Shown: positions 22,186 to 43,160 of the stretch, one piece after another
Layout of the letters: each line of letters opens with the position of its first letter
How positions within the stretch are numbered: the first letter of the stretch is position 1
Virus record (IMG/VR): IMGVR_UViG_3300044652_000022
Location: 11,154 to 75,153 of that record
DNA length: 64,000 nucleotides
Strand: one strand, 5' to 3'
Origin: a virus
Lineage: Duplodnaviria > Caudoviricetes
The notes under the pieces: model-generated
What the model was told of the DNA's origin: nothing
Seen by the model: the letters and a program-made list of their open reading frames with translations, nothing else
The model's database searches: none
Translations under genes and position numbers: made by a program

Positions 22186-22506
22186 ATGACCATCGCTGCT
22201 CTCCTCGCCGCGGCTCGCAAAATCTGGGGGGCGGAGCGGATGACCTTGCCCGAGATCATCGTTTGTCTGAACGTGATCCTGGGCGATATCGCGCGGCTGC
22301 AACGAGACCGGGATCGGGAGCGGTCGCTTCCTGGAGTTTGGGACCGCGCGCTGAAAAAGGAACTCGGGAATCTGATCTTATCCACGATCCGCTGGTGCGA
22401 CGATTTAGACTTCAACCCCAACGAGTGCATTATCGAAGCGCAAAAGGCTCAGGCGGTGATGGCGGATCGGCTGCGGATCGAGCGGACAGGGAGGATTCAA
22501 GGATGA
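22186..22506 (+). CDS. MazG-like NTP pyrophosphohydrolase fold protein (degenerate)
   Basis: helical EII...GDIAR...KELGNLILSTIRWCDDLDF pattern. Confidence 0.55.
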   Translation: MTIAALLAAARKIWGAERMTLPEIIVCLNVILGDIARLQRDRDRERSLPGVWDRALKKELGNLILSTIRWCDDLDFNPNECIIEAQKAQAVMADRLRIERTGRIQG

Positions 22507-22793
22507 GTCTTTTCACTTCTCTATTGCTGGCGGACGCTTTCGAGAAAGGCGGTCCCGGTTCCGGCCAACTCCCAGGATCCGCATCCGCCGCTGCGGCTCG
22601 GGCTTCGGAACGGGCTATTGACAAGTCCTCGCATAAGCGAGCAGCAAAGCTGCACACCCGCGCCGCCACCGCTCATTTGCAGGCGGCGGTGCATGTTGGC
22701 GGAACACTGTCGGAAAAGGGACGCGAGCACCTTGCTGCGTACGATACCCACCACAATGCGGCGTTAGAGCATTGGCTGCGGGCGGGCAAATAA
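22503..22793 (+). CDS. His/Ala-rich leader-family protein C1
   Basis: MSLFTSLLLADAFEKGGPGSG leader. Confidence 0.75.
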   Translation: MSLFTSLLLADAFEKGGPGSGQLPGSASAAAARASERAIDKSSHKRAAKLHTRAATAHLQAAVHVGGTLSEKGREHLAAYDTHHNAALEHWLRAGK

Positions 22794-29357: not shown

Positions 29358-29717
29358 ATGCGCGAATGGTTCCATCGTTTTGCGGAGAAGGCGGAAAGGT
29401 ACGCTGGGTCCCCATCTGCCTTCTTCATTGCCACGGCGATGGTCTTGGTCTGGCTGGCCACGGGACCAGCCATGCGCTTCACCGACACGTGGCAGTTTCT
29501 GATCGACACGCCCACCAACATCATTACCTTCCTGATGGTCTTTGTTCTGCAAACCTCGCAGAACCGGAACCAGAAGGCGCTTCATTTGAAGCTAGACGAA
29601 CTGATCCGCGTTTCGACAGCGCGGAATGCCTTTGTCGGTCTGGAGAAGTTCAGTGAGGACCAGATTGCCGAACTCCAGCGCGAGTTTGATAGGATAGCGA
29701 AGGGAGACGAAAGATGA
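29358..29717 (+). CDS. low-affinity iron permease family protein (Fet4-like domain)
   Basis: F.RFA......GSP.AF...W...GP...F.DTWQ..I.T.T.IITFLMVF..Q..QNR..ALHLKLDELIR. Confidence 0.85.
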   Translation: MREWFHRFAEKAERYAGSPSAFFIATAMVLVWLATGPAMRFTDTWQFLIDTPTNIITFLMVFVLQTSQNRNQKALHLKLDELIRVSTARNAFVGLEKFSEDQIAELQREFDRIAKGDER

Positions 29718-30079
29718 GTTTGTTCACTTCCCTGCTCTTGGCGGATGCGGTGGAGAAAGGCGGACCTGGATCGGGACGCCATCCGGGAGGCGGATCGGAT
29801 CCTCGTTCGCTGGCGATCCATGCCCGCCGTATGACAGAGGCAGCGCAGGACGCGACGAAACGATCCCGTTCAGAAAATTCTGGGTCGGCGCATCGCGAAG
29901 CAGCGGCGGCTCATGAGCGGGCAGAGTACGCCCACCGCGCCGCATCCGACGCCTATCGAGCGGAAGGCAATCGCGAGCGTTCCGCCAACGGACATGCAGA
30001 CCAGGCGCAGCGACACCAGCGCGCCGCAGCGTTTCACAGCAGGATGGCTACCGCCGACACCGTTCGGCGCTGGGAATAG
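29714..30079 (+). CDS. His/Ala-rich leader-family protein C2
   Basis: MSLFTSLLLADAVEKGGPGSGRHPG. Confidence 0.75.
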   Translation: MSLFTSLLLADAVEKGGPGSGRHPGGGSDPRSLAIHARRMTEAAQDATKRSRSENSGSAHREAAAAHERAEYAHRAASDAYRAEGNRERSANGHADQAQRHQRAAAFHSRMATADTVRRWE

Positions 30080-30090
30080 GAGAACAGAAG

Positions 30091-30732
30091 ATGAGTTTGC
30101 TAACGTCGTTGCTGTTGACGGACTCGATTGAAAAAGGCGGACCCGGATCGGGACGCCGCCCTGGCGGTGGGCAAGCTCCTCCGTCCTCGTTATTCGAACA
30201 CGAACGCGCGGCGCGGCAGGCTTCGACGCGCGCCAACTTCACCAACAAGCCCGAACACCACGCCTACGCTGCGAAAATGCACCGCGAGGCTGCGTCGGCG
30301 TTTGGCGCCAAGGGTGACCGAGAAAAGCAACAGAGCCACGAGCGCCTGGCTGCGTTTCACGAACGCAAAGCCGCGAGCGTGGGCAAGGGTGGTCCCGGAT
30401 CCGGCCGACATGCGGAAGGCGGAAGCCAACGCTTCACAATGGCCGGCGGTCGTCATTCAGGAACAGGAATGACGCACCAGGAGTTCGGGCACTTTGCGGC
30501 GAAGGTCGGCATGGCGCTGAACGAAAACCGCGCGAAGGAGAACTCGTTGCGGGCAGCAGGCAACCACGAAGCCGCCAACCGCATTTACGATGAGAACAAG
30601 GGCCGGGTCAAAGGGATCCTGGATGAACACGGCGTAACGCCCCAAGCCTTCGATCACCACATGGGCGTTTACTCCAAAGCATCCGGGTCTCGTCCGCCCA
30701 ACGTGAAGCTGTCCCGCATGTTCATGTCCTAA
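30091..30732 (+). CDS. His/Ala-rich leader-family protein C3 (two GGPGSG units)
   Basis: MSLLTSLLLTDSIEKGGPGSGRRPG and internal SVGKGGPGSGRH. Confidence 0.75.
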   Translation: MSLLTSLLLTDSIEKGGPGSGRRPGGGQAPPSSLFEHERAARQASTRANFTNKPEHHAYAAKMHREAASAFGAKGDREKQQSHERLAAFHERKAASVGKGGPGSGRHAEGGSQRFTMAGGRHSGTGMTHQEFGHFAAKVGMALNENRAKENSLRAAGNHEAANRIYDENKGRVKGILDEHGVTPQAFDHHMGVYSKASGSRPPNVKLSRMFMS

Positions 30733-33325: not shown

Positions 33326-33525
33326 GGATTTGGCACGCCATCCGCCAGGTGTTCTGCCTCCACCGTCGGTTAGAGTTCGTGCGGAACATTTACGGCGACG
33401 AGATCAACTACAGCGGCGGCAATCGCTCGCTTTGGACATGTTTGAACTGCCACGCGCTGATCGGTAAAAAGAACCTGTACTTCGGAGATAGCGACAGTGA
33501 CGACTATCCCTCCCCCAGTGTTTGA
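33322..33525 (+). CDS. hypothetical protein (FC.H...CxxC)
   Basis: 67 aa, GGAG RBS. Confidence 0.55.
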   Translation: MRIWHAIRQVFCLHRRLEFVRNIYGDEINYSGGNRSLWTCLNCHALIGKKNLYFGDSDSDDYPSPSV

Positions 33526-36500
33526 AAAGATCCCGGACCCGAAGGCGCAGTCGCTCTTAAAGCAGTTTGTGGCGCGTCATTTGAACAGCGGAGCTTCGGA
33601 GCTGGTCGCCTACGTGAAGGCGTATCGAGCACTCGAGGAAGCCGGGTACGCGCGCGGCGACGACGGGACCTGGGTCCTGAAGGACTCGCCCACCATCTCC
33701 GACGTGCATGTTCCTGGCATCTTCCGCTTCCGTCTGCCGCGTCGTCGCCGCAAGCCCAAAAAAGACAAGCCAGCAATTCTGAAGCGCATCAGCGGCAACT
33801 CGGATATCGGGTTGAACGCCAAAGGCTCTGAGGACGCCATGCGCCTTGGGGAGCGGTTAGCGGCGCGTGGGGGGCTGGATGTGCTTTACGCAAGTCCAGT
33901 GGCGCGCGCCGCCCAGACCGCTGAAGCCTTGACCGAAGCCGATCCGTCCTTGACGTACCAGCTGAACAGCGCCCTGGCGCCCTGGCACCTGGGAAAGTAC
34001 GAAGGGCGGATGCCCGAAGAGGTTGGGACGAAAATCGACCGCCTGATCCAGAACCCGGACGACCGTCCTCCAGGCAACGGGCAGGATGCGGTGCCAGGTG
34101 AATCTTTCAACGATTTCAAAAAACGGATTATTACCTTCGTGCATGACGCCGGGATCGAATGGTCCAAGCATCCCGATATGCGCCTCGGGATCGTGATGCA
34201 CTCGCGCCCGCTCGATCTGATAATGGACTGGATCGCGGCTGGTGGTCCTCCTCCAGACTCGTCTTTCCGTCTGCGTCATACGCAGGAACACAACGACAAT
34301 TTGCAGCATGGATCGGTCTGGGTCTGGCGCCTCAACGATATCGAGACGCAGCAGGTGGACCTGAACCTCAACGATCCGCTGCCTGGCGGCGTGTACCTGA
34401 TCCTGCATTGTCTGACGGACGACGACCCGGACGACGGGATCGAACTCGACGCTACCGAAAAACGCTACGTCCCTCCTATCGAAGCCATCCGCGATGCCCA
34501 GGCTTCGTTCGAGGCTGGGTTCACGGTTCCTGAAATCACGGAAAAGCTGGCTTCGGGTGAAGGACTGACGCTCGATGAGGTCGAGCGGATATACGAGTTC
34601 TTCGGGACCGCCTCCAACGATATCGAAAAGCGCGCCTGGGGCGGACCCTTCGCCGCCAAGTGGGTGACGCGCGTTATCCGCAAGGCGTACACGGTCGAGG
34701 AGGACTTTGAAAAGGCAGATGGGCAGTGGGTAACTGTTCATGGTGTGCATGTATTCATCGACAAAAATGGTGTTATCCAAAAAGGTCCTCGCACGCTGAT
34801 TGGGCAACACCATACCGCTGTTACCCACAAGGACGTTGACGCTGTTTTCGAGGACAAAACGCCGCCTTCAATTCCCCCTAAAGGTTCTCCTGTAGAGGCT
34901 TACGCAGAGAACCTTCCGCATTTTGCGTCTTTCTACCTAAAGGATCAGGAGGCTGTTAAAACACTTCGGGATGCCTACTTCGCGCAGGAGCATGGTATTG
35001 CACCGCCCACAGAGGCAGAAAGACAGTGGACAGAGCACAACCAAAAGTTTGACCTGAACGATCCTGCCGTAAAAGCCCAGCAGGAGTTCGTGCAGGCGTG
35101 GATGCGGCATTCCTACCCTGATGGAAAGGTCAAGCTGTACAGAGCCCAATTGGGAGAGCCTCCTAGCAATCAGGTTTCTTACGCCCACGACCGAACGTCC
35201 GCCGTCGAGTTCAAGGAAACAGCGCTACAGGGACAGGGCAAGATCGTTTCGCACACGATCAAGGTCTCCGACATTGTGAATGCGTCGCCCTTTATCGGCT
35301 ACCTGGGGCGAGCCGATGAGCGTGAAGTCGTCGTAAACCGTTCGGTAAAGAAAAACGACGCGGTAGAAAAACAAGGCGGCGGGATCATGGTCGCGTTTAC
35401 CGTGTCCCCAGCGCTTGCGGACTTGCTGCGTGTAGACGACGGCGAGGACTCGGACGACATGCACATTACGCTGGCGTACCTGGGCCAGGTAGATGAAGTG
35501 GATCCCGAGCGCCTCGCCTTTCTCGAGGACGCGCTGGAAGGCTTCGGGTTGACGCATGGGCCAATGACCGGCGACATTTCGGGACCTGCTCGATTCGCTG
35601 CAACGAAGCACAGCGACGACAAGGACGTGGCGATAGCGCTGTTCAATTCCCCAACCATCCAGGAGTTCCGGAACGAACTCGTCCAGACGATTGAAGCGCT
35701 GGGACTGGAGGTAAAAAAGAACTTCGGGTACACGCCGCATATCACGCTGGCGTACATCAGCCCGGACGAGGACATGCCCGTCCAGCGCATCGACCCGGTC
35801 AAGGTGACGTTCGATCAAATCACGTTGTACGTTGGCGGCGAGCGAACGGACTTCGATCTGGTGGGATACGCAGAGCCAGTCACCAAGGCTACCGCCGTGG
35901 ACGAAGGCACCTGGGTGACGATCAATGGCCAGCATGTTTTGATCGGTGCGAACGGAGAGATCCTGCGCGGGAATCCCAAGGTACTTGGACAGCCCAAGCA
36001 AGGTGACCTGCCGCTCCAGCCGGCGATGAAGTTGACGCCGGTAAATGAAAAAGCCTTCAACGGGAAGCAAATCGAGGTCCAGCACAAGCTCTCTAAACTC
36101 GAAACCGGCAAGACAGCAGAGGAAGCCGTCCTCGCGCATTTCCACCAGCAAGGGCTGACGGACGCGCGTCCGCTGAACGAAAAGCACACGAACTTCCCTA
36201 TCGACCTCGTCCAGGACCATCAAGCCATCGAGGTCAAAGGCGGGCTGGTGTCGAATAGCAAAGCCGCGCAGCAGTGGCGTGCGACTATCGGACAGCCAGG
36301 CAAGACGGAAACGGCGTGGCTGAAGCAAGCCGGGAAGGAAGAAAAAGCGGCGTGGAATGATCGCAAGTCCCAGGAGATCCTGAAGCGCAAGGCGGACGCT
36401 GTGAAGGAACTCTCCAAGGAGCACGGAGTCAAATTCAAGGGGTACACAATGACCTCGATTATCAACCCCGACACCAAGACCATCGACCTGTATAAATTCG

Positions 36501-36577
36501 AGGGCTTCCACCTCCGCATCCCGTGGAACTCACCGTCCGCGAAAGCCGCGTACGTCGGAACATTCCGGTATCAATAA
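33497..36577 (+). CDS. polyvalent head-associated polyprotein (ChaB-like, His-phosphatase-like, ART-like, 2H phosphoesterase, PD-(D/E)xK nuclease)
   Basis: 1026 aa; recognisable catalytic motifs for each domain; two WVT..G.HV.I repeats; TAATG-coupled to protease. Confidence 0.85.
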   Translation: MTTIPPPVFEKIPDPKAQSLLKQFVARHLNSGASELVAYVKAYRALEEAGYARGDDGTWVLKDSPTISDVHVPGIFRFRLPRRRRKPKKDKPAILKRISGNSDIGLNAKGSEDAMRLGERLAARGGLDVLYASPVARAAQTAEALTEADPSLTYQLNSALAPWHLGKYEGRMPEEVGTKIDRLIQNPDDRPPGNGQDAVPGESFNDFKKRIITFVHDAGIEWSKHPDMRLGIVMHSRPLDLIMDWIAAGGPPPDSSFRLRHTQEHNDNLQHGSVWVWRLNDIETQQVDLNLNDPLPGGVYLILHCLTDDDPDDGIELDATEKRYVPPIEAIRDAQASFEAGFTVPEITEKLASGEGLTLDEVERIYEFFGTASNDIEKRAWGGPFAAKWVTRVIRKAYTVEEDFEKADGQWVTVHGVHVFIDKNGVIQKGPRTLIGQHHTAVTHKDVDAVFEDKTPPSIPPKGSPVEAYAENLPHFASFYLKDQEAVKTLRDAYFAQEHGIAPPTEAERQWTEHNQKFDLNDPAVKAQQEFVQAWMRHSYPDGKVKLYRAQLGEPPSNQVSYAHDRTSAVEFKETALQGQGKIVSHTIKVSDIVNASPFIGYLGRADEREVVVNRSVKKNDAVEKQGGGIMVAFTVSPALADLLRVDDGEDSDDMHITLAYLGQVDEVDPERLAFLEDALEGFGLTHGPMTGDISGPARFAATKHSDDKDVAIALFNSPTIQEFRNELVQTIEALGLEVKKNFGYTPHITLAYISPDEDMPVQRIDPVKVTFDQITLYVGGERTDFDLVGYAEPVTKATAVDEGTWVTINGQHVLIGANGEILRGNPKVLGQPKQGDLPLQPAMKLTPVNEKAFNGKQIEVQHKLSKLETGKTAEEAVLAHFHQQGLTDARPLNEKHTNFPIDLVQDHQAIEVKGGLVSNSKAAQQWRATIGQPGKTETAWLKQAGKEEKAAWNDRKSQEILKRKADAVKELSKEHGVKFKGYTMTSIINPDTKTIDLYKFEGFHLRIPWNSPSAKAAYVGTFRYQ

Positions 36578-37281
36578 TGCCTGTCCCAAAAGAGGTTGAG
36601 CAGGAGTTCCAGGACGCCCTGGACGCCTACATTAAAGACTGGAAGGCGGACCTTCTCGCTCACGCCAAAGAGTATGAGGCGAAAAAGGAGAAGCGCGAAA
36701 AGCCCAAATGTCCGCATTGCGGATCGAGCGACTACGGGCTTCTCCCTGCCGACTTCGAAACGGCTCGCTGCCACAACTGCGGCAAGACATGGGACCACGG
36801 CATTGTTCCCGGCATCAACGATCCATACGAAAAACGCCAGGTCGAAGTTTCTGGGACGATCACGAAATTGGACAAGAGCCGCCACCTGGTGTTTGGATGG
36901 TTCTCGATTGTCAAGGTGGACGGACGTCCGGTCGTGGACAGCCAGCAGGATATCATCACGCCAGAAACCCTCGAGGACTCTGCCTACCAGTTTGTCTTGA
37001 ACGCGCGAGTGGCTGGCGAGATGCACAACAAGGACGGCGACAACACGGTGGTTGGCGTCGGGCGCCTCGTAGAGTCTGTGGTCTTTACGAAAGAAAAGCA
37101 AGCCGCCATCGTGTCTAGCCTAACCGACCAGCACATCTCTGCCGTGATGGATCTTGGGATGGAGGGCTGGTGGGGCGGCTTTCGCATCGAGGACGAAGCC
37201 ACTTGGGCGAAGGTAGTTACCGGAGAACTGCGCGCCTTCTCGATTGGCGGCAAGGGCAAGCGAGAAAAGATTTCGGAATAG
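36577..37281 (+). CDS. XkdF-like prohead serine protease with N-terminal Zn ribbon
   Basis: ITKLD..HLVFGW, D.Q.D, GEMH, GRLVES, GWW.GF, W..V..GEL..FSIGG; CPHC..CHNC. Confidence 0.88.
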   Translation: MPVPKEVEQEFQDALDAYIKDWKADLLAHAKEYEAKKEKREKPKCPHCGSSDYGLLPADFETARCHNCGKTWDHGIVPGINDPYEKRQVEVSGTITKLDKSRHLVFGWFSIVKVDGRPVVDSQQDIITPETLEDSAYQFVLNARVAGEMHNKDGDNTVVGVGRLVESVVFTKEKQAAIVSSLTDQHISAVMDLGMEGWWGGFRIEDEATWAKVVTGELRAFSIGGKGKREKISE

Positions 37282-37290
37282 GAGTGACAG

Positions 37291-37713
37291 ATGGCCAATA
37301 GCTGGTACAACGTGGCGCTGGACAATTTCGCCAAAAAGCAAATCGACTGGATCAACGACACGATCAAAGCCGTCCTGATCGACTCGGGCGCTTACACGTT
37401 CGCAGCCACGCACGCCGACCTGACCTCGATCCCGACTGGGTCGCGCATCGGGACGCCGCAGACGTTGGCTGGGAAAACAGTTTCAGGAGGCGGCATTTTA
37501 GACGCCAACGACATTACCTTCCCGGCTGTGGCGCAGACCAACCCGACGGTCGAGGCGGTGCTGGTTTACGCGGAAGGCGGCGGTACGGACGCGACACGCA
37601 CGCCGCTCCTGTATTTGGACACCTTCGACGTGGGCGCGCTGTCCGTGCAACCCAACGGCGGCGATATCGCCATCACCTGGGACAACGGGACCAACAAGAT
37701 CGCGAAGTTATGA
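37291..37713 (+). CDS. virion structural protein (fibre/appendage base family)
   Basis: D.IKAVL.D...Y...PNGGDI.I.WDNG.NKI.KL pattern. Confidence 0.7.
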   Translation: MANSWYNVALDNFAKKQIDWINDTIKAVLIDSGAYTFAATHADLTSIPTGSRIGTPQTLAGKTVSGGGILDANDITFPAVAQTNPTVEAVLVYAEGGGTDATRTPLLYLDTFDVGALSVQPNGGDIAITWDNGTNKIAKL

Positions 37714-38156
37714 ACACCGACAGCGTGCGGGTTTTGCTGAACTTCAGCCGCGATACGGATGTTGGGACGTATAGCGACTCCATCAACCTGTCGCAGGAAG
37801 AATACGCTGCCATGACCGCCGACCAAATCGAGGCGATGAAACAGGAGCGTGTGAACGCCTGGGTTAATCTGGTAAAGAACCCGCCACCGCCTCCACCACC
37901 CGATCCCACCGTAAGACGGATCGACAAATGGACGTTTCGGCAGCGGTTCACGTTTAACGAGCAGGCTGCTATCGCTGCCGCACCGCTGAACAACGACCTT
38001 CCGATTCAGGTCCGCGGAGCGGTGCGCGCGATCCTCGACAACCTCGACGCAGCACCCGACGTAGGACTAGACGATCCCGACACCCAGGCAATGCTCCAGC
38101 AGCTAGTCACCTTCGGGCTCCTGACAGCCGATCGTGTTCCTTTAATCCTGAGCTAA
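37710..38156 (+). CDS. hypothetical virion-associated protein
   Basis: 148 aa; RI.K..F..RFT..E...I, V.LDDP.T...L..LV..GLL...R pattern. Confidence 0.6.
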   Translation: MNTDSVRVLLNFSRDTDVGTYSDSINLSQEEYAAMTADQIEAMKQERVNAWVNLVKNPPPPPPPDPTVRRIDKWTFRQRFTFNEQAAIAAAPLNNDLPIQVRGAVRAILDNLDAAPDVGLDDPDTQAMLQQLVTFGLLTADRVPLILS

Positions 38157-38157
38157 C

Positions 38158-41031
38158 GTGGCGACGCGGACTATCAGCAACGCGGGCGGCAATTGGAACG
38201 CCACCGGGACCTGGGTGGAAGGTGCGGTCCCGACGGCCTCCGACGACGTGGTAGCAACCGCTACCAGCGGGAATCTGACGATCAACGCCGCGGCTTCGTG
38301 CCGCTCGATTGACCTGACGAACTACACCGGGACCGTGACGCATAACGCGGCGATATCGCTGTCGATTGGGACTACGACGACCAACGCTAGCAACACGGCG
38401 CTGGTGTTCCCGTCAACCGGGTGGACGTACACACTTGGGAACAGCGCCACTTCCGCTCTGGTGTTCGCCAGCACCTCCGCCACGCAGCAAACGATTGACT
38501 TTGGCGGCAAGACAGTAGGTAACGTGACGTTTAACGGTGCTGGATCGAGCTACCTGCTGTCCAGCGCCATGAACTCTAGCGGAACCTTGACGCTGAACGC
38601 CGGAACATTCAACAGCAACGCCAAAAACGTCACCGCCTCCGTTATCAATACGAACACCGGAACCACGACCCGCGTCCTGACCTTGACGAACTCGACCGTG
38701 ACGCTGACGGGCTCTGGCGTAAACGCCTTCGACAGTGGGAACCCTTCGGGATCGAATCTGACGATCAATGCTACGGGCTCCACCGTCAATATGACCGGTG
38801 CCAGCGCCATCTTTAAAAACGGGTACACGTTCGGGACCCTCAATCTCCAGGCGGCGAATCAGCAAATTGGCAATACAGGATCGGGCGCTTCGGGTACGTA
38901 CACCTCCGTCAATTACACGGGCGGCGGCAACATGGCGATGCAGAATGGAACCTTTACCAATCTGACCGTCACCGGGACTGCCGCCAAGACCGACAATATC
39001 CTAATTCGCGCGATCACCGTAACTGGGACCCTGACGATCAATGGGAACTCGGCCTCGAACCGTCTCCTGATTTCCTCCGATATCGTCAACACCCAGCGCG
39101 TCATCACGCTGCAAGGCGCCGGTGCCAATGTCGTCGCGTCCAACGTCGACTTTATGGATGTTGGGTTTGCCCAGGGCACCGGCGGTCCTGCGATGCCGAT
39201 TAACCTGTCCGCCATTTCAGGTGGAGCAGGTGACGCTGGAGGAAATTCCAACATCACGTTTTCTGCATCCCAGACAAACTACTGGGTAGCGGATACCGGG
39301 AACTGGTCCGACAGCACGAAATGGAAACTTTCTGACCATACCACCGCTGGGCGCGTTCCGCTTCCTCAGGATGACGTGCGTTTCGACGCCAGCAGCTTCA
39401 CGGCGACTGGGAAACAGGTCACGACCGACATGCCGCGCGTTGGTCGCAACGTTGACTTTACCGGCGTCACGAATAGCCCGACGCTAGTGCCCAACGGAAC
39501 TGGGTTGCTGTTCATGGGCAGTTTAACGATGGTGTCGGGCATGACCCAGAACACCACCGTATTCACGTCGTATACGTTTGGCGCCCGAAGCACCGCCATT
39601 ACTATCACTAGCGCAGGCAAAACGCTGCCTGGCGGATTGACGCTGAATCTGGTTGGCGGATCGCTGACCTTGCAGGACGCTTTGAACAGCAACGGTGCGA
39701 TCATCCACAACTTCGGGACCTTCGACGCCGTTTCCTACAACGTCACCGGGCAGAACTTCCAGTCCAACAATAGCAACACCCGCAGCATCAAAATGGGGTC
39801 CGGGACCTGGACGCTGTGGGGTGACTTCACGATCTGGAACACCGCCACCCAGACCAACCTGACGTTCAACGCAGGGACCTCGACGCTGGTCATTTCTTCG
39901 ACTTCAGGCAGCGGGCGCACTTTCACTCCTGGCGGCGGATTGACGTTCTACAACCTGACGATTACAGGTGGCGGAACGGGATCGGTGACGATTCAAAGCG
40001 CTAGCACGTTCCACAACTTGGTAATTGGGGCTCCCAAGACCGTCATCTTCCCGTCGTCAACGACGCAGACCATTACCGGAATCTTCGATGCGGTTGGTTC
40101 GAGCGGGAATGTTATCACGATCCAAGCCAGCACGTCTGGGACCGCCGCCACCTTGAGTAAAGCCAGCGGGATTGCGGTAGCCAATTATCTGTCGCTGAAG
40201 GACAGCACGGCTACGGGTGGAGCGACGTGGTACGCAGGCGCCAACTCGACCACCGTGTCCAACGTCACCGGTTGGACGATGACCAACCCGCCGACGCAAA
40301 CCGAAAACATGACGGCGCGGGCTTCGGTCGTCGCATACGGTTCTCCGCACCTGACCAGCAATCGCACCATGACCCTCACCGCAAAGGGCTCGGCGGTCGC
40401 TTACGGTGCCACGCATTTGACCCCGCCTGCGTCGTTGCTCACACTGACCTCCCGCGCCACCGTCGTCGCATTTGGATCACCGACTTTAAAACAGGCGATC
40501 TTGATGAACCCGGTGGCGCGAGGGTCGGTGGTGGCCTTTGGGACCGCGAGTCTTACGCCAGGTGCTGTCACGCTGCATCCACCTGCGTTATCGGCTGGTG
40601 TACTCGGTGCTGCGCATCTGTCCACGCTGCGGACTGTGTTCCCAAACGCTGTACTCAGCGCGCAAGCGGAAGGCGCTCCCCACCTGTTGTCGGTGTTCAA
40701 TACGCATCCGGTGGGCTTGGCTTCGTCGCGAGTGTTTGGGCAGCCGCATCTTTTCTCGCTGTTCACTTTTCATGCGATTGGGAAAGGGTCGTCCGCCGCG
40801 CCAGGGTTAGCGCACCTGCTCGCGCTGTACCGCATGAATCTGGTTGGCGTCGTGGACCCCGCGCAATTGGGTGTCCCGCATTTTATCCTGTCCAAGTTTT
40901 TCGAACCGATTCTCCTCACCGCAGAATGGAACCCGCAAGTGGACCTCGCTGCGGTGTGGGGGTTCGCAGACGGTGAAGGCAATCTAGAGGGGTCGTTCGT
41001 GGCTGACCTTTCGATGCAGGGTGAGATATGA
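38158..41031 (+). CDS. long beta-helix/fibre-like virion protein
   Basis: Thr/Gly/Asn/Ser-rich, repeated GNW..T.W modules, about nine 22-aa G.[AP]H[LF] repeats at C-terminus. Confidence 0.75.
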   Translation: MATRTISNAGGNWNATGTWVEGAVPTASDDVVATATSGNLTINAAASCRSIDLTNYTGTVTHNAAISLSIGTTTTNASNTALVFPSTGWTYTLGNSATSALVFASTSATQQTIDFGGKTVGNVTFNGAGSSYLLSSAMNSSGTLTLNAGTFNSNAKNVTASVINTNTGTTTRVLTLTNSTVTLTGSGVNAFDSGNPSGSNLTINATGSTVNMTGASAIFKNGYTFGTLNLQAANQQIGNTGSGASGTYTSVNYTGGGNMAMQNGTFTNLTVTGTAAKTDNILIRAITVTGTLTINGNSASNRLLISSDIVNTQRVITLQGAGANVVASNVDFMDVGFAQGTGGPAMPINLSAISGGAGDAGGNSNITFSASQTNYWVADTGNWSDSTKWKLSDHTTAGRVPLPQDDVRFDASSFTATGKQVTTDMPRVGRNVDFTGVTNSPTLVPNGTGLLFMGSLTMVSGMTQNTTVFTSYTFGARSTAITITSAGKTLPGGLTLNLVGGSLTLQDALNSNGAIIHNFGTFDAVSYNVTGQNFQSNNSNTRSIKMGSGTWTLWGDFTIWNTATQTNLTFNAGTSTLVISSTSGSGRTFTPGGGLTFYNLTITGGGTGSVTIQSASTFHNLVIGAPKTVIFPSSTTQTITGIFDAVGSSGNVITIQASTSGTAATLSKASGIAVANYLSLKDSTATGGATWYAGANSTTVSNVTGWTMTNPPTQTENMTARASVVAYGSPHLTSNRTMTLTAKGSAVAYGATHLTPPASLLTLTSRATVVAFGSPTLKQAILMNPVARGSVVAFGTASLTPGAVTLHPPALSAGVLGAAHLSTLRTVFPNAVLSAQAEGAPHLLSVFNTHPVGLASSRVFGQPHLFSLFTFHAIGKGSSAAPGLAHLLALYRMNLVGVVDPAQLGVPHFILSKFFEPILLTAEWNPQVDLAAVWGFADGEGNLEGSFVADLSMQGEI

Positions 41032-41399
41032 GCAAGCAGCAGAACATTGACGAGTTGCCCATCGGCTGCTATCGCCGTCTGAAGGTTACGGTCACGGACC
41101 CGGACAACAATAATGCTCCGCTCGACCTGACCAGCGTCCAGGAGATCCGCTGGGTGCTATCTGCCCTGCCGTCGTACGCGGTCAAGGTAAGCAAAACGCT
41201 GGAAGACGGGATCACGATCCTCGACCAGACCGTGACCGAAAACGTCGGACAGTTCCTGGTTGAAATTGCACCGACCGACACCGACGGCTTCAAGCCAGGT
41301 ATCTATTATCACGAGGCGCGCGTCGTGGATTATCTGGGACGCCCGGACGTGGTGGTCTGGGGAAAAGTCACCGTAAAAGCCAGCCCCTCGAATAGCTAA
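41028..41399 (+). CDS. BppU-like adaptor protein
   Basis: P.DLT...W...K...GI.I....G.F.V.I.P.DT...PG.YYHE..V pattern. Confidence 0.6.
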   Translation: MSKQQNIDELPIGCYRRLKVTVTDPDNNNAPLDLTSVQEIRWVLSALPSYAVKVSKTLEDGITILDQTVTENVGQFLVEIAPTDTDGFKPGIYYHEARVVDYLGRPDVVVWGKVTVKASPSNS

Positions 41400-41409
41400 G
41401 GAGGATTCT

Positions 41410-42744
41410 ATGGCGCAGGAATTGAGAGAACTGGAACTCGAGGAGGTTAGCCTCGTGGACCGCCCGGCCTGTTCAGAAAAAGGCATCCCGCGCGCGAGGA
41501 TCGCGCTGACCAAGCGCCACGCGGAGGTGGTGAAGGCCGGGACCAAGGGCGTCAAATTTGTTATCGGATTTCCCAAGGAGGGCGGTGGAGGATCGGAAGT
41601 CCAGTCCGTAATCTTCGATCAAAACGACTGGACGGAGGATGAAGCGCGGCAGTGGTTGAAAGACCACGACTTCTCCTCAGGCAAGATGGACAAGACAGAA
41701 GGGTCCTTGCGGTTTCGTCAGGCGGACCCGGACAAGTTCGGGAGATTCAGGACCATCTCTCCTGGACAGGTGAAAAAGGAAGGAGACCACTCAATGACGT
41801 TGGAGCAAATCGAAAAGAAAGTCGAGGAGCAGGACAAGGTTCTCAAGGGCATCCAGGATGAGAACACGGTCCTGAAAACCGAAAACGAACTCGTTCTGAA
41901 GATGAACTCCGAGGAGCGCAGGCTATACGCGGTGATGCCCGCAGAGCGCCGCCTCGAGTACATCAACGGCGACGTAGCCAAGCGGAAAAAGCTCCTGGAG
42001 GATCAGGAGAAGGAGGAGAAGGAGAAGGCGCTGGTTGGCGGGCTGGACGACACCCGCAAGGCCGAGTATGCGGCAGCGGGTCCCGCGCGCCGCGCGCAGA
42101 TCCTCAAGGAAGCTGAGGAGGCGCTGGAAAAGAAAAAGACCGCGAAAGCCATGTGCCCCGATTGCGACGGCACGGGCGAGGTGGACGGCGAGGACTGCCC
42201 GACCTGCGATGGCACGGGCGAGGTGGACAGCAGCGAAATGGACAAGCACAAAAAGGAACCGAAAAAGACCGAGAAGCGCGACGACGACCCCCGCATCGTG
42301 GAACTCCAGAAGCGGGCGGCCGAAGCCGAGGACAACGTGGCCAAGGTGACCGCCAAACTCAGCGAGATCGAGAAGCGCGAGCGCCTCGAGAACTTCACCA
42401 AGCGCGCCGAGGAAGAGCTGCCCAATACGCCTGGCAGCCCGGCCGAAAAGGGCGAGATGCTGATGAAAATGGCGGACGCCTTCGGCGGTGTCCACAGCGC
42501 CGAATACAAGCGCTATTTCGGGACGCTGAAGGAGGCGGACAAGATTTACGCCTCGCAGTACACCGAGATCGGCAAGATGGGCGGACCGATCCCGGCGGCC
42601 AAGGTCTGGGACGCGAAGGTGGAGGAGATCGCCAAGCGCGACAAACTCGGCATCGGGAAGGCGACGGCGGTGGCGATGAAGGAAGCGCCCGAACTGTACG
42701 TGGAGTACGAACGCGCCCAGCGGCAACTCGTCCGGTCGATCTAA
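41410..42744 (+). CDS. scaffold protein (protease-tail N-terminus, DnaJ-type Zn repeats, coiled coil); internal start at 41794
   Basis: EVSLVDRPA; EVQSVIFD..W..A..WLK.HDF; CPDCDGTG/CPTCDGTG; AAGGAG before MTLEQ. Confidence 0.8.
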   Translation: MAQELRELELEEVSLVDRPACSEKGIPRARIALTKRHAEVVKAGTKGVKFVIGFPKEGGGGSEVQSVIFDQNDWTEDEARQWLKDHDFSSGKMDKTEGSLRFRQADPDKFGRFRTISPGQVKKEGDHSMTLEQIEKKVEEQDKVLKGIQDENTVLKTENELVLKMNSEERRLYAVMPAERRLEYINGDVAKRKKLLEDQEKEEKEKALVGGLDDTRKAEYAAAGPARRAQILKEAEEALEKKKTAKAMCPDCDGTGEVDGEDCPTCDGTGEVDSSEMDKHKKEPKKTEKRDDDPRIVELQKRAAEAEDNVAKVTAKLSEIEKRERLENFTKRAEEELPNTPGSPAEKGEMLMKMADAFGGVHSAEYKRYFGTLKEADKIYASQYTEIGKMGGPIPAAKVWDAKVEEIAKRDKLGIGKATAVAMKEAPELYVEYERAQRQLVRSI

Positions 42745-42794: not shown

Positions 42795-43160
42795 ATGGCC
42801 TTTGAAATTCAAAGCTCGAAGTCGATCAATGCAGGTGTGGACCTGCGGACCAAGCAGTACACCTTCGTCCGTCTCGACAACACGGGGCGCCTGGCCTCCG
42901 CGGGTGCGGGCGCGTCGGCGATTGGTGTCCTGCAGGACAAGCCCAACCTGAACGACCCTGGCGCCGTCTGTGGACCCGGCGACATTACCAAGATCGTTTG
43001 CGGTGGCAACATCCCGGCGGGCGCGGATATCATGTCCGACGCCAACGGCGCTGCGGTCGTCGCCACCAGCGGGTCGTACATTTTGGGAGCCAATCTGTAC
43101 GGCGCCGGCGTCGCGGGCGCGGTCATCACCATGCGCTTCCAGCCGCGCGGTCGGATGTAG
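42795..43160 (+). CDS. capsid cement/decoration protein (DUF2190-like)
   Basis: QY.FV...G......AIGVLQ.KP, GG.I.AG..I.SDA.G.AV; directly before capsid gene. Confidence 0.8.
   Translation: MAFEIQSSKSINAGVDLRTKQYTFVRLDNTGRLASAGAGASAIGVLQDKPNLNDPGAVCGPGDITKIVCGGNIPAGADIMSDANGAAVVATSGSYILGANLYGAGVAGAVITMRFQPRGRM

Follow-up and report, generated by a model that had tools for sequence, protein, structure and literature searches.

How do polyvalent proteins, which are widespread in phages, enter the capsid, and do they act there as one chain or as separate enzymes? Both points are poorly explored, and they are raised anew by a polyvalent cargo protein gene in a 64,000-nucleotide stretch of viral DNA (the window; bases 11154-75153 of the 75-kb IMG/VR virus record IMGVR_UViG_3300044652_000022), which directly precedes the gene of an XkdF-type prohead protease. 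An initial annotation had described the cargo as a polyprotein with module borders at hydrophobic-x-Lys sites, matured by the head protease into several anti-defence or host-takeover enzymes. We give a probability of about one half to a capsid-loaded cargo polyprotein that is cut by the XkdF head protease into separate enzymes, which are then delivered with the DNA. This reading builds on the domain content and gene context of the protein, on relatives in which the same modules are fused or split, and on the family-specific conservation of a Lys-containing motif at the joints between modules.

A modular cargo protein encoded next to the prohead protease

The cargo gene opens with a GTG codon, with the Shine-Dalgarno sequence GGAGA 8 nt upstream, and its TAA overlaps the ATG of the protease gene (caaTAATGcc). 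The modular open reading frame (ORF) and the TAATG overlap with the protease gene were thus found as initially described, and the downstream gene was confirmed as XkdF by its Pfam match. A programmed frameshift joining cargo to protease was rejected, as the frames overlap by just 54 nt and no slippery heptamer was seen on reading. The gene junction looks like ordinary translational coupling. The protein holds at least two unrelated effector-type domains in one polypeptide (ChaB-like, His_Phos_1, 2H and PD-(D/E)xK), and its gene lies among head-morphogenesis genes in the order portal, MuF, polyvalent gene, XkdF protease, scaffold, capsid, which agrees with the reported position of a polyvalent protein near MuF and portal. 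By its domains, the cargo is a predicted chain of nucleic-acid- and nucleotide-directed enzymes. Its closest homologues are P0004-P0007 (E 1e-110 to 1e-118), and the sole part of it that matches cultured phages is the 2H domain.

The ChaB-like, phosphatase-like, helical, 2H and PD-(D/E)xK modules recognised initially are all backed by Pfam and/or by fold or hidden Markov model (HMM) evidence. The N-terminus superposes on ChaB 1sg7 (VIA Z 6.8, root-mean-square deviation (rmsd) 2.1 over 61 residues, 26% identity); Pfam ChaB (PF06150) gave no match to the window copy, and in three relatives it matched over the full profile with 25.7 (P0056), 22.7 and 19.8 bits (cutoff 27). The 2H domain has both HxT motifs (HITL at 656 and 748) and the fold of drCPDase 5h7f (VIA Z 12.6). 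For the C-terminal module the Pfam scan returned no matching model; its predicted structure resembles Hjc, NhoI and I-Ssp6803I (Z 8.4-8.7, rmsd 2.6-3.1), and its PD-(D/E)xK motif reads IDL903 ... E912-V-K914. This nuclease module is found with 50-60% identity, and nearly always C-terminally, in 112 of the best 150 representatives. The helical domain is kept across the family, its module HMM matching in ~30 relatives.

Residues 96-258 match His_Phos_1 (E 2e-23, 83 bits; gathering score 21.7). The structure of this domain was taken from a model of the domain alone, the full-length AlphaFold model being poor there (gappy alignment); the model has a predicted local distance difference test (pLDDT) value of 87.5 and matches CobC/PGAM in Foldseek (E 4e-8, TM 0.6). 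The catalytic RHG motif was sought in the N-terminal part of the domain and not found, the alignment covers PhoE from its residue 16 onwards, and the first strand is missing from the model. At its C-terminal end the domain carries an invariant V-Y-L-I-L-H-x-L-T-D-D-D that resembles the missing L-Y-L-x-R-H-G-E-T element. The C-terminal YLILHxLTDDD may replace the N-terminal RHG element, and the domain may be circularly permuted or be a non-catalytic binder.

Between the helical and 2H domains, the earlier label 'ADP-ribosyltransferase (ART)-like' for residues 431-620 had to be dropped. A relaxed Pfam scan, a region-restricted homologue search, a PDB sequence search and the protein atlas gave no match to this module, and BLASTP found no similarity between it and the ADPrib_exo_Tox domain of the relative P0059. 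Its predicted fold is of low confidence, and loose R/S/ExE-like residues alone are present (KLYR549, EREV611). The atlas gave no information on either of the two modules of unrecognised family. Both WVT..G.HV.I motifs pointed out previously are present by regular expression, the first being modelled as three short strands at 410-429.

The joints between modules share a Lys-type motif

Candidate joints were accepted at K62, K96, K322, K406, K625 and K797 (Table 1). All six fall between confidently folded domains, in segments that are coil or of low model confidence, and in the models they look accessible. Five of them had been proposed as borders before, together with VFEK11, which we rejected, as it is helical, lies within the ChaB fold (pLDDT >80) and has a Lys that is not conserved; K96 was added. 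At the first joint, V-x-K stands before the DSPTxxDVHV motif in 12/12 family members, and in the window protein the model confidence drops from residue 64. The K96 segment is coil in the domain model, and [VIL]-x-K precedes RISG in all 33 phosphatase modules. Relatives read GN-x-x-L-E-K at the position of DATEK322, and at the 2H border [VIL]-x-K comes right before the first strand in 25/25 family members. These last three anchors (DSPTxxDVHV, RISG and the first 2H strand) were counted in the family only.

Domain borders defined independently coincide with such sites: 5 of the 7 in the window protein have one within 6 residues (binomial p ~6e-4). An alignment of five sequences contains 9 invariant Lys columns, six of which have a hydrophobic P3 residue throughout, and five of those six are module borders. 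We then compared linker anchors, defined without reference to Lys, between the family and other phage polyvalent proteins. Hydrophobic-x-K precedes GGPGSG in 19/19 family cases and in 0/3 outside, QPR..G.[FW] in 19/22 (with Lys at -5 in 22/22) and 5/28, and WVT in 8/8 and 0/1, respectively. Pooled, these three anchors give 46/49 in the family versus 5/32 in unrelated polyvalent proteins (Fisher p = 3e-13), the latter being close to the background rate of hydrophobic-x-K (0.12-0.17). A logo of 81 unique sites shows Asp or Glu at P5/P4, Val (51), Ile (21), Leu (7) or Phe (2) at P3, any residue at P2 and Lys at P1. Judged from these alignments, (D/E)-(V/I/L)-x-K is a joint signature specific to this family.

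In addition, K-(K/D)-D-D-P-G-T-Q-D-V is repeated in linkers of P0004, P0006, P0007 and other relatives. It resembles the K-D-S-P-T-x-x-D-V-H-V that follows the ChaB-like domain (window 33680-33715, with the joint after the Lys) and may represent another type of joint or tag.

Relatives fuse, split and exchange the modules

Coupling of the cargo to the prohead protease, first noted from the overlapping genes, turned out to be stronger in the closest relatives, where the modules are fused to XkdF. P0004-P0007 each carry ChaB, phosphatase, helical domain, variable slot, 2H and XkdF protease in one polypeptide, and XkdF is fused to cargo modules in at least 18 cluster representatives. Gene arrangement was compared among IMG/VR relatives with a capsid protein 65-70% identical to that of the window phage. 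The cargo is one gene in L004 and L009. It is divided over two genes in L002, the first comprising ChaB, phosphatase, helical domain and WVT plus a small nuclease, and the second a 95-aa N-terminal domain, 2H, XkdF and a PI3/4-kinase-like domain. L006 and L007 also have two genes, phosphatase-helical-2H followed by the 95-aa domain with XkdF, and L003 has three, of which the 2H gene ends in a Zeta-toxin domain. These gene breaks coincide with the joints. Since both fused and split relatives exist, fusion and separation of the modules at the joints have occurred in nature. Linkage of cargo to protease is the ancestral or a recurrent state, and the window holds an uncoupled form with translational coupling.

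The place of the cargo gene between MuF and protease is conserved. The variable slot, whose contents were also read from P0059, P0005 and P0004, holds a Zeta toxin, ARTs of the ADPrib_exo_Tox type or a HAD-like DxDGT module in relatives, and a PI3/PI4-kinase-like domain can be placed after the protease. The 2H domains of relatives give weak Pfam matches to Acb1 (anti-CBASS). Other phages have 2H fusions to portal, MuF, Mu-I and capsid proteins.

Leader genes and N-terminal elements

Modules also occur as stand-alone genes with a short leader. Three genes of the window form a leader family that carries the joint signature, as had been proposed; their consensus leader, MSL[FL]TSLLL[AT]D[AS][FVI]EK, ends directly before GGPGSG. 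Stand-alone cargo genes open with this 15-aa leader, ending D-[AS]-[VFI]-x-K before a Gly, in 7/7 cases (3 in the window, 4 in relatives), and the leader also opens the polyvalent genes of L006 and L007. P2 varies among relatives, with the endings ...ADAVSK, ...ADSVKK, ...KDAVEK and ...SDAVLK, the last followed by GSPDQPRDDHGRF. An HMM of the module in gene 29714 matches modules embedded in the polyproteins of relatives, directly after L-E-K and GGPGSG. Stand-alone and embedded modules therefore share an upstream ending, as expected if it marks a processing site and perhaps also an address tag. Such a shared ending would be hard to explain other than as a processing site.

A second N-terminal element, the previously undescribed domain of ~95 aa, is found solely at residue 1 of cargo or protease genes (11 proteins). 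It follows the pattern M-x-x-E-[IL]-x-N...LGQFASNxGYSDL...ITDGT.DDEVEK and ends in D-(D/E)-V-E-K, immediately before the next module. A search of the window in all six frames did not find it.

Prohead protease and scaffold

The protease matches Peptidase_S78_2/XkdF with E 1.3e-16 (61.2 bits, cutoff 24). Its 86 N-terminal residues form a helix and a zinc ribbon (zinc-ribbon matches), followed by the protease domain (aa 87-234). H150 and S222 are invariant in 17 sequences, and GEMH and FSIGG have their counterparts in the FFNH and MSVGF motifs of HK97 gp4. We take H65 and S114 of gp4 to be the counterparts of His150 and Ser222, and the roles of these gp4 residues are likewise assumed. From these motifs the XkdF protease looks active. 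The protease itself had been credited with a border at ITK97, before LD; this site lies inside the Pfam XkdF domain, is invariant in the family and is probably the first strand of that domain, and it was discarded as a border. A better candidate is a site at variable offset just upstream, PYEK86 here and VEK, LEK or VTK in relatives.

The scaffold carries the signature at IEK, FTK and IGK, as annotated, and in an alignment of 9 scaffolds IEK and IGK are conserved in 9/9 relatives. The XkdF ORF stops 12 residues past the catalytic Ser, and the first 40 residues of the scaffold (ELELEEVSLVDRPA...IALTK, then R; window 41410-41530, and likewise L015:2192-3696) resemble the strands after the catalytic Ser of HK97 gp4 (ALREISVCTFPANEQAGIAAMK). 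The two-gene layout of protease and scaffold is common to 9/9 relatives and the cultured Roseobacter phage CRP-6. A role of the scaffold in completing or docking the protease in trans is possible. A DnaJ-type CxxCxGxG zinc-finger pair (42145-42222; Pfam E 5e-4) is inserted in the scaffold of the window phage alone; the scaffolds of relatives have acidic stretches at this position.

Proposed cleavage and delivery of the cargo

Under the reading that we favour, the polyvalent protein would be made late together with the protease and would enter the procapsid. The protease, predicted to be XkdF, would cleave exposed (D/E)-(V/I/L)-x-K joints behind their Lys, at K62, K96, K322, K406, K625 and K797. 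The released modules would begin with a GGPGSG, xxQPRDxxGRF or DGxWVTxxGxHVxI tag, or directly with their first strand, and would leave the capsid with the DNA at infection, where they might serve an anti-defence role. A P1 Lys with a hydrophobic P3 residue has a precedent in the sister family, as the site at the end of the scaffold domain of HK97 gp5 reads F101-N102-K103 before S104, which is hydrophobic-x-Lys (one site read). The check that had been suggested, mass spectrometry of virions for semi-specific peptides starting after these Lys, cannot detect the proposed cuts if trypsin or Lys-C is used, because peptides starting after Lys look tryptic.

Several observations weigh against cleavage at these sites. 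Hydrophobic-x-K occurs at 23 of the 70 lysines of the polyvalent protein; the bare motif is therefore meaningless alone, and the evidence lies in its placement and conservation. The anchor counts are not independent, because family members share ancestry, and the Lys could belong to an extended linker motif specific to this lineage. K96-R97 directly adjoins the conserved RISG loop and the 2H site lies 3 residues before the first strand, so that conservation at both could be structural. At DATEK322 the P3 residue is Thr, which is not hydrophobic. The window cargo has no covalent link to the protease and carries neither the 15-aa leader nor the 95-aa domain, and no report on the cleavage specificity of XkdF was found in the literature searched.

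In an alternative that we regard as possible though rather unlikely, the chain is packaged and delivered largely intact, or is separated just from the protease in fused relatives. (V/I)-x-K would then be linker structure, and the joints would be kept by descent or for structural or docking reasons. N4 vRNAP and ArdC/TraC1 are packaged unprocessed, as cited in PMC5512222, linker motifs occur in other lineages without an upstream Lys, and two of the Lys sites adjoin conserved domain elements. An intact chain fits less well with the fact that P3 and P1 are fixed while P2 and the upstream module vary, across many unrelated contexts. It also leaves unaccounted for that the 15-aa leaders, which have no other obvious role, keep the joint ending, and that genes are split at the joints.

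The enzymes might instead never enter the virion and form a late cytoplasmic set for RNA-end healing or the degradation of nucleotide signals, plus a nuclease, with an incidental location in the head operon. RNA repair and the destruction of cyclic-nucleotide signals are typical tasks of 2H and phosphatase domains; this, together with the weak Acb1 matches of relatives and the lack of a recognisable address tag in the window copy, would suit such a role. We nevertheless consider it improbable, given the conserved position between MuF and protease, the covalent fusion of relatives to the prohead protease, and the 2H domains fused to portal, MuF, Mu-I and capsid proteins in other phages. Lower still we place the view that the protease cuts the chain as expendable scaffold or core material inside the head, which is broken down and expelled ahead of DNA packaging, with no enzyme delivered to the host. 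The scaffolds of this group do carry V/I-x-K sites, and in HK97- and T4-type maturation protease and scaffold fragments are normally lost from heads. However, the catalytic motifs are intact (the 2H HxT pair and D...ExK), and toxin-type enzymes (ART, Zeta toxin, kinase-like, HAD) replace one another as modules, a pattern that fits effectors rather than filler.

Beyond cleavage of a packaged polyprotein, we tentatively suggest, as a rather doubtful proposal when all four of its parts are taken jointly, that this siphovirus-like lineage has a full, portable set of rules by which capsid cargo is loaded and released. Its parts would be (i) three interchangeable N-terminal address elements, namely the 15-aa leader, the 95-aa domain and the ChaB-like domain; (ii) (D/E)-(V/I)-x-K as a universal site of cleavage by the XkdF protease; (iii) generic tags (GGPGSG, QPRDxxGRF and WVTINGxHV) with which the enzymes would start after their release; and (iv) the first 40 scaffold residues, which would complete or dock the protease in trans and thereby pull protease-linked cargo into the procapsid.

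Features of the head module

The positions of the genes, domains and candidate joints are collected in Table 1. The protease and scaffold genes are separated by a 4.1-kb insertion of four genes (37291-41399), which encode phrog_644, a fibre-like protein of 957 aa rich in Thr, Ser and Gly, and two further proteins of 148 and 123 aa. In the relative L002 the protease and scaffold genes are almost adjacent. The capsid protein shares 40-47% identity with proteins annotated as major capsid proteins in cultured phages; a search for cultured close relatives found none, the capsid being at most 47% identical to those of Roseobacter and Pseudomonas phages. The small protein at 42795, for which the Pfam search gave no match, is presumably DUF2190-like.

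Table 1. Genes, protein modules and candidate joints in the window, and genes of relatives that carry the 95-aa domain.
Feature	Position	Strand	Remarks
Third leader-family gene	22503..22793	+	...ADAFEK, then GGPGSG
Large terminase	23958
Portal	27191
Leader-family gene	29714..30079	+	MSLFTSLLLADAVEK, then GGPGSG and a helical module; small gene between portal and MuF
Two-unit leader-family gene	30091..30732	+	Leader ...IEK, then GGPGSG; internal SVGK, then GGPGSG; small gene between portal and MuF
MuF	31140
Polyvalent cargo protein gene	33497..36577	+	1026 aa
ChaB-like domain	33497..33682	+	aa 1-62, ending W-V-L-K62; pLDDT ~95
Candidate joint WVLK62, then DSPT	33671..33682	+
Candidate joint AILK96, then RISGNS	33773..33784	+	New, absent from the initial annotation
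Histidine-phosphatase-like domain	33785..34447	+	aa 97-317
Candidate joint DATEK322, then RY	34448..34462	+	pLDDT minimum between domains
Helical domain	34463..34702	+	aa 323-402; three helices in model; matches no known family
Candidate joint DFEK406, then ADGQW	34703..34714	+	Low-pLDDT segment 397-406
First WVTxxGxHVxI beta-hairpin linker motif	34715..34786	+	Regular-expression match
Module formerly labelled ART-like	34787..35356	+	aa 431-620
Candidate joint DAVEK625, then QGG	35357..35371	+	Pentapeptide identical to that of the gene 29714 leader
2H phosphoesterase domain	35372..35872	+	aa 626-792; Pfam 2_5_RNA_ligase2, E 1e-9
Candidate joint PVTK797, then ATAV	35876..35887	+	Low-pLDDT segment 792-800, before second WVT motif
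Second beta-hairpin linker motif	35888..35974	+	WVTINGQHVLI
PD-(D/E)xK nuclease-like C-terminal module	36032..36574	+	aa 846-1026; pLDDT >90
XkdF-type prohead protease gene	36577..37281	+	Pfam Peptidase_S78_2
Scaffold protein	41410..42744	+
Capsid protein	43202		Pfam weak, lambda gpE-like, E 0.048
Tape measure protein	53690
95-aa domain, relative L002	L002:5553-7670		PI3/PI4-kinase-like domain after the protease
95-aa domain, relative L003	L003:1608-3287		Zeta toxin
95-aa domain, relative L006	L006:5692-6495
95-aa domain, relative L007	L007:5560-6363
95-aa domain, further relatives	P0005, P0006

Comparison with known systems

Polyvalent proteins as described by Iyer, Burroughs, Anand, de Souza and Aravind in 2017 (PMC5512222) likewise combine unrelated conflict-type domains, including 2H, in one polypeptide encoded beside MuF and portal genes, and packaging and injection have been proposed for them. 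Their release was proposed to occur mainly via an embedded MPTase peptidase, and, in contrast to the family described here, the paper contains no XkdF fusion, Lys-type joint, leaders or phosphatase/ChaB/helical core. Head-packaged proteins that act at injection are also known from the Dar system of phage P1 (DarA/DarB/DdrB), anti-restriction proteins of which some are proteolytically processed (cited in PMC5512222). Unlike the cargo studied here, they are encoded by separate genes and have different domains and a different loading hierarchy, and we found no sequence relationship.

Further known systems are the internal proteins and Alt of T4, whose capsid-targeting sequences are cut by gp21, and the ejection proteins of phiKZ and SPN3US, which are cut by the prohead protease (PMC10052503, PMC5694885). 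These systems share with our proposal a prohead-loaded cargo, a short consensus cut by the head protease and N-terminal leaders that are removed. A short consensus of this kind is present at the predicted leader ends (7/7 leaders) and domain joints (46/49 anchors) of the family. The T4, phiKZ and SPN3US proteases are of the S77 type and cut after Glu, at (L/I)-x-E or S/A/G-x-E, in myoviruses or jumbo phages, whereas the window phage has an XkdF-type protease, a predicted P1 Lys and a siphovirus-like head module.

The HK97 protease, which removes the 103-residue scaffolding domain of gp5 (PMC10275583), is, like XkdF, a serine protease; the two share a group name (S78 versus S78_2), and their His and Ser motifs match. 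In contrast to the proposed cargo cleavage, the substrate of the HK97 protease is the scaffold domain of the capsid protein itself and not an enzyme cargo. Fused head genes have been reported in actinobacteriophages (MuF-protease, protease-scaffold-capsid and the MuF-VIP2 toxin; PMC7302621). As in these phages and in the 'head maturation protease / RNA ligase' proteins of Gordonia and Arthrobacter phages, head proteins are fused mutually or to toxin or 2H domains. However, these fusions share the 2H domain alone with the present family (~30% identity), and neither a joint motif nor processing is described for them. Polyvalent proteins, protease-trimmed head cargo and fused head genes are thus already known. 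What is new is the XkdF-linked family itself, with its Lys-type joint grammar on generic linkers, the leader and 95-aa elements and a natural series of fused and split forms.

Implications

The family offers a falsifiable rule, namely that a small protease amenable to expression cleaves (D/E)-(V/I)-x-K behind its Lys, and the fused, split and leader-tagged versions of the same modules provide natural controls. If the rule is true, it would account for the linker motifs that are ubiquitous in polyvalent proteins and would make the boundaries of mature effectors predictable in metagenomic phages. It would also provide a tag-and-cut system for putting foreign proteins into phage heads.

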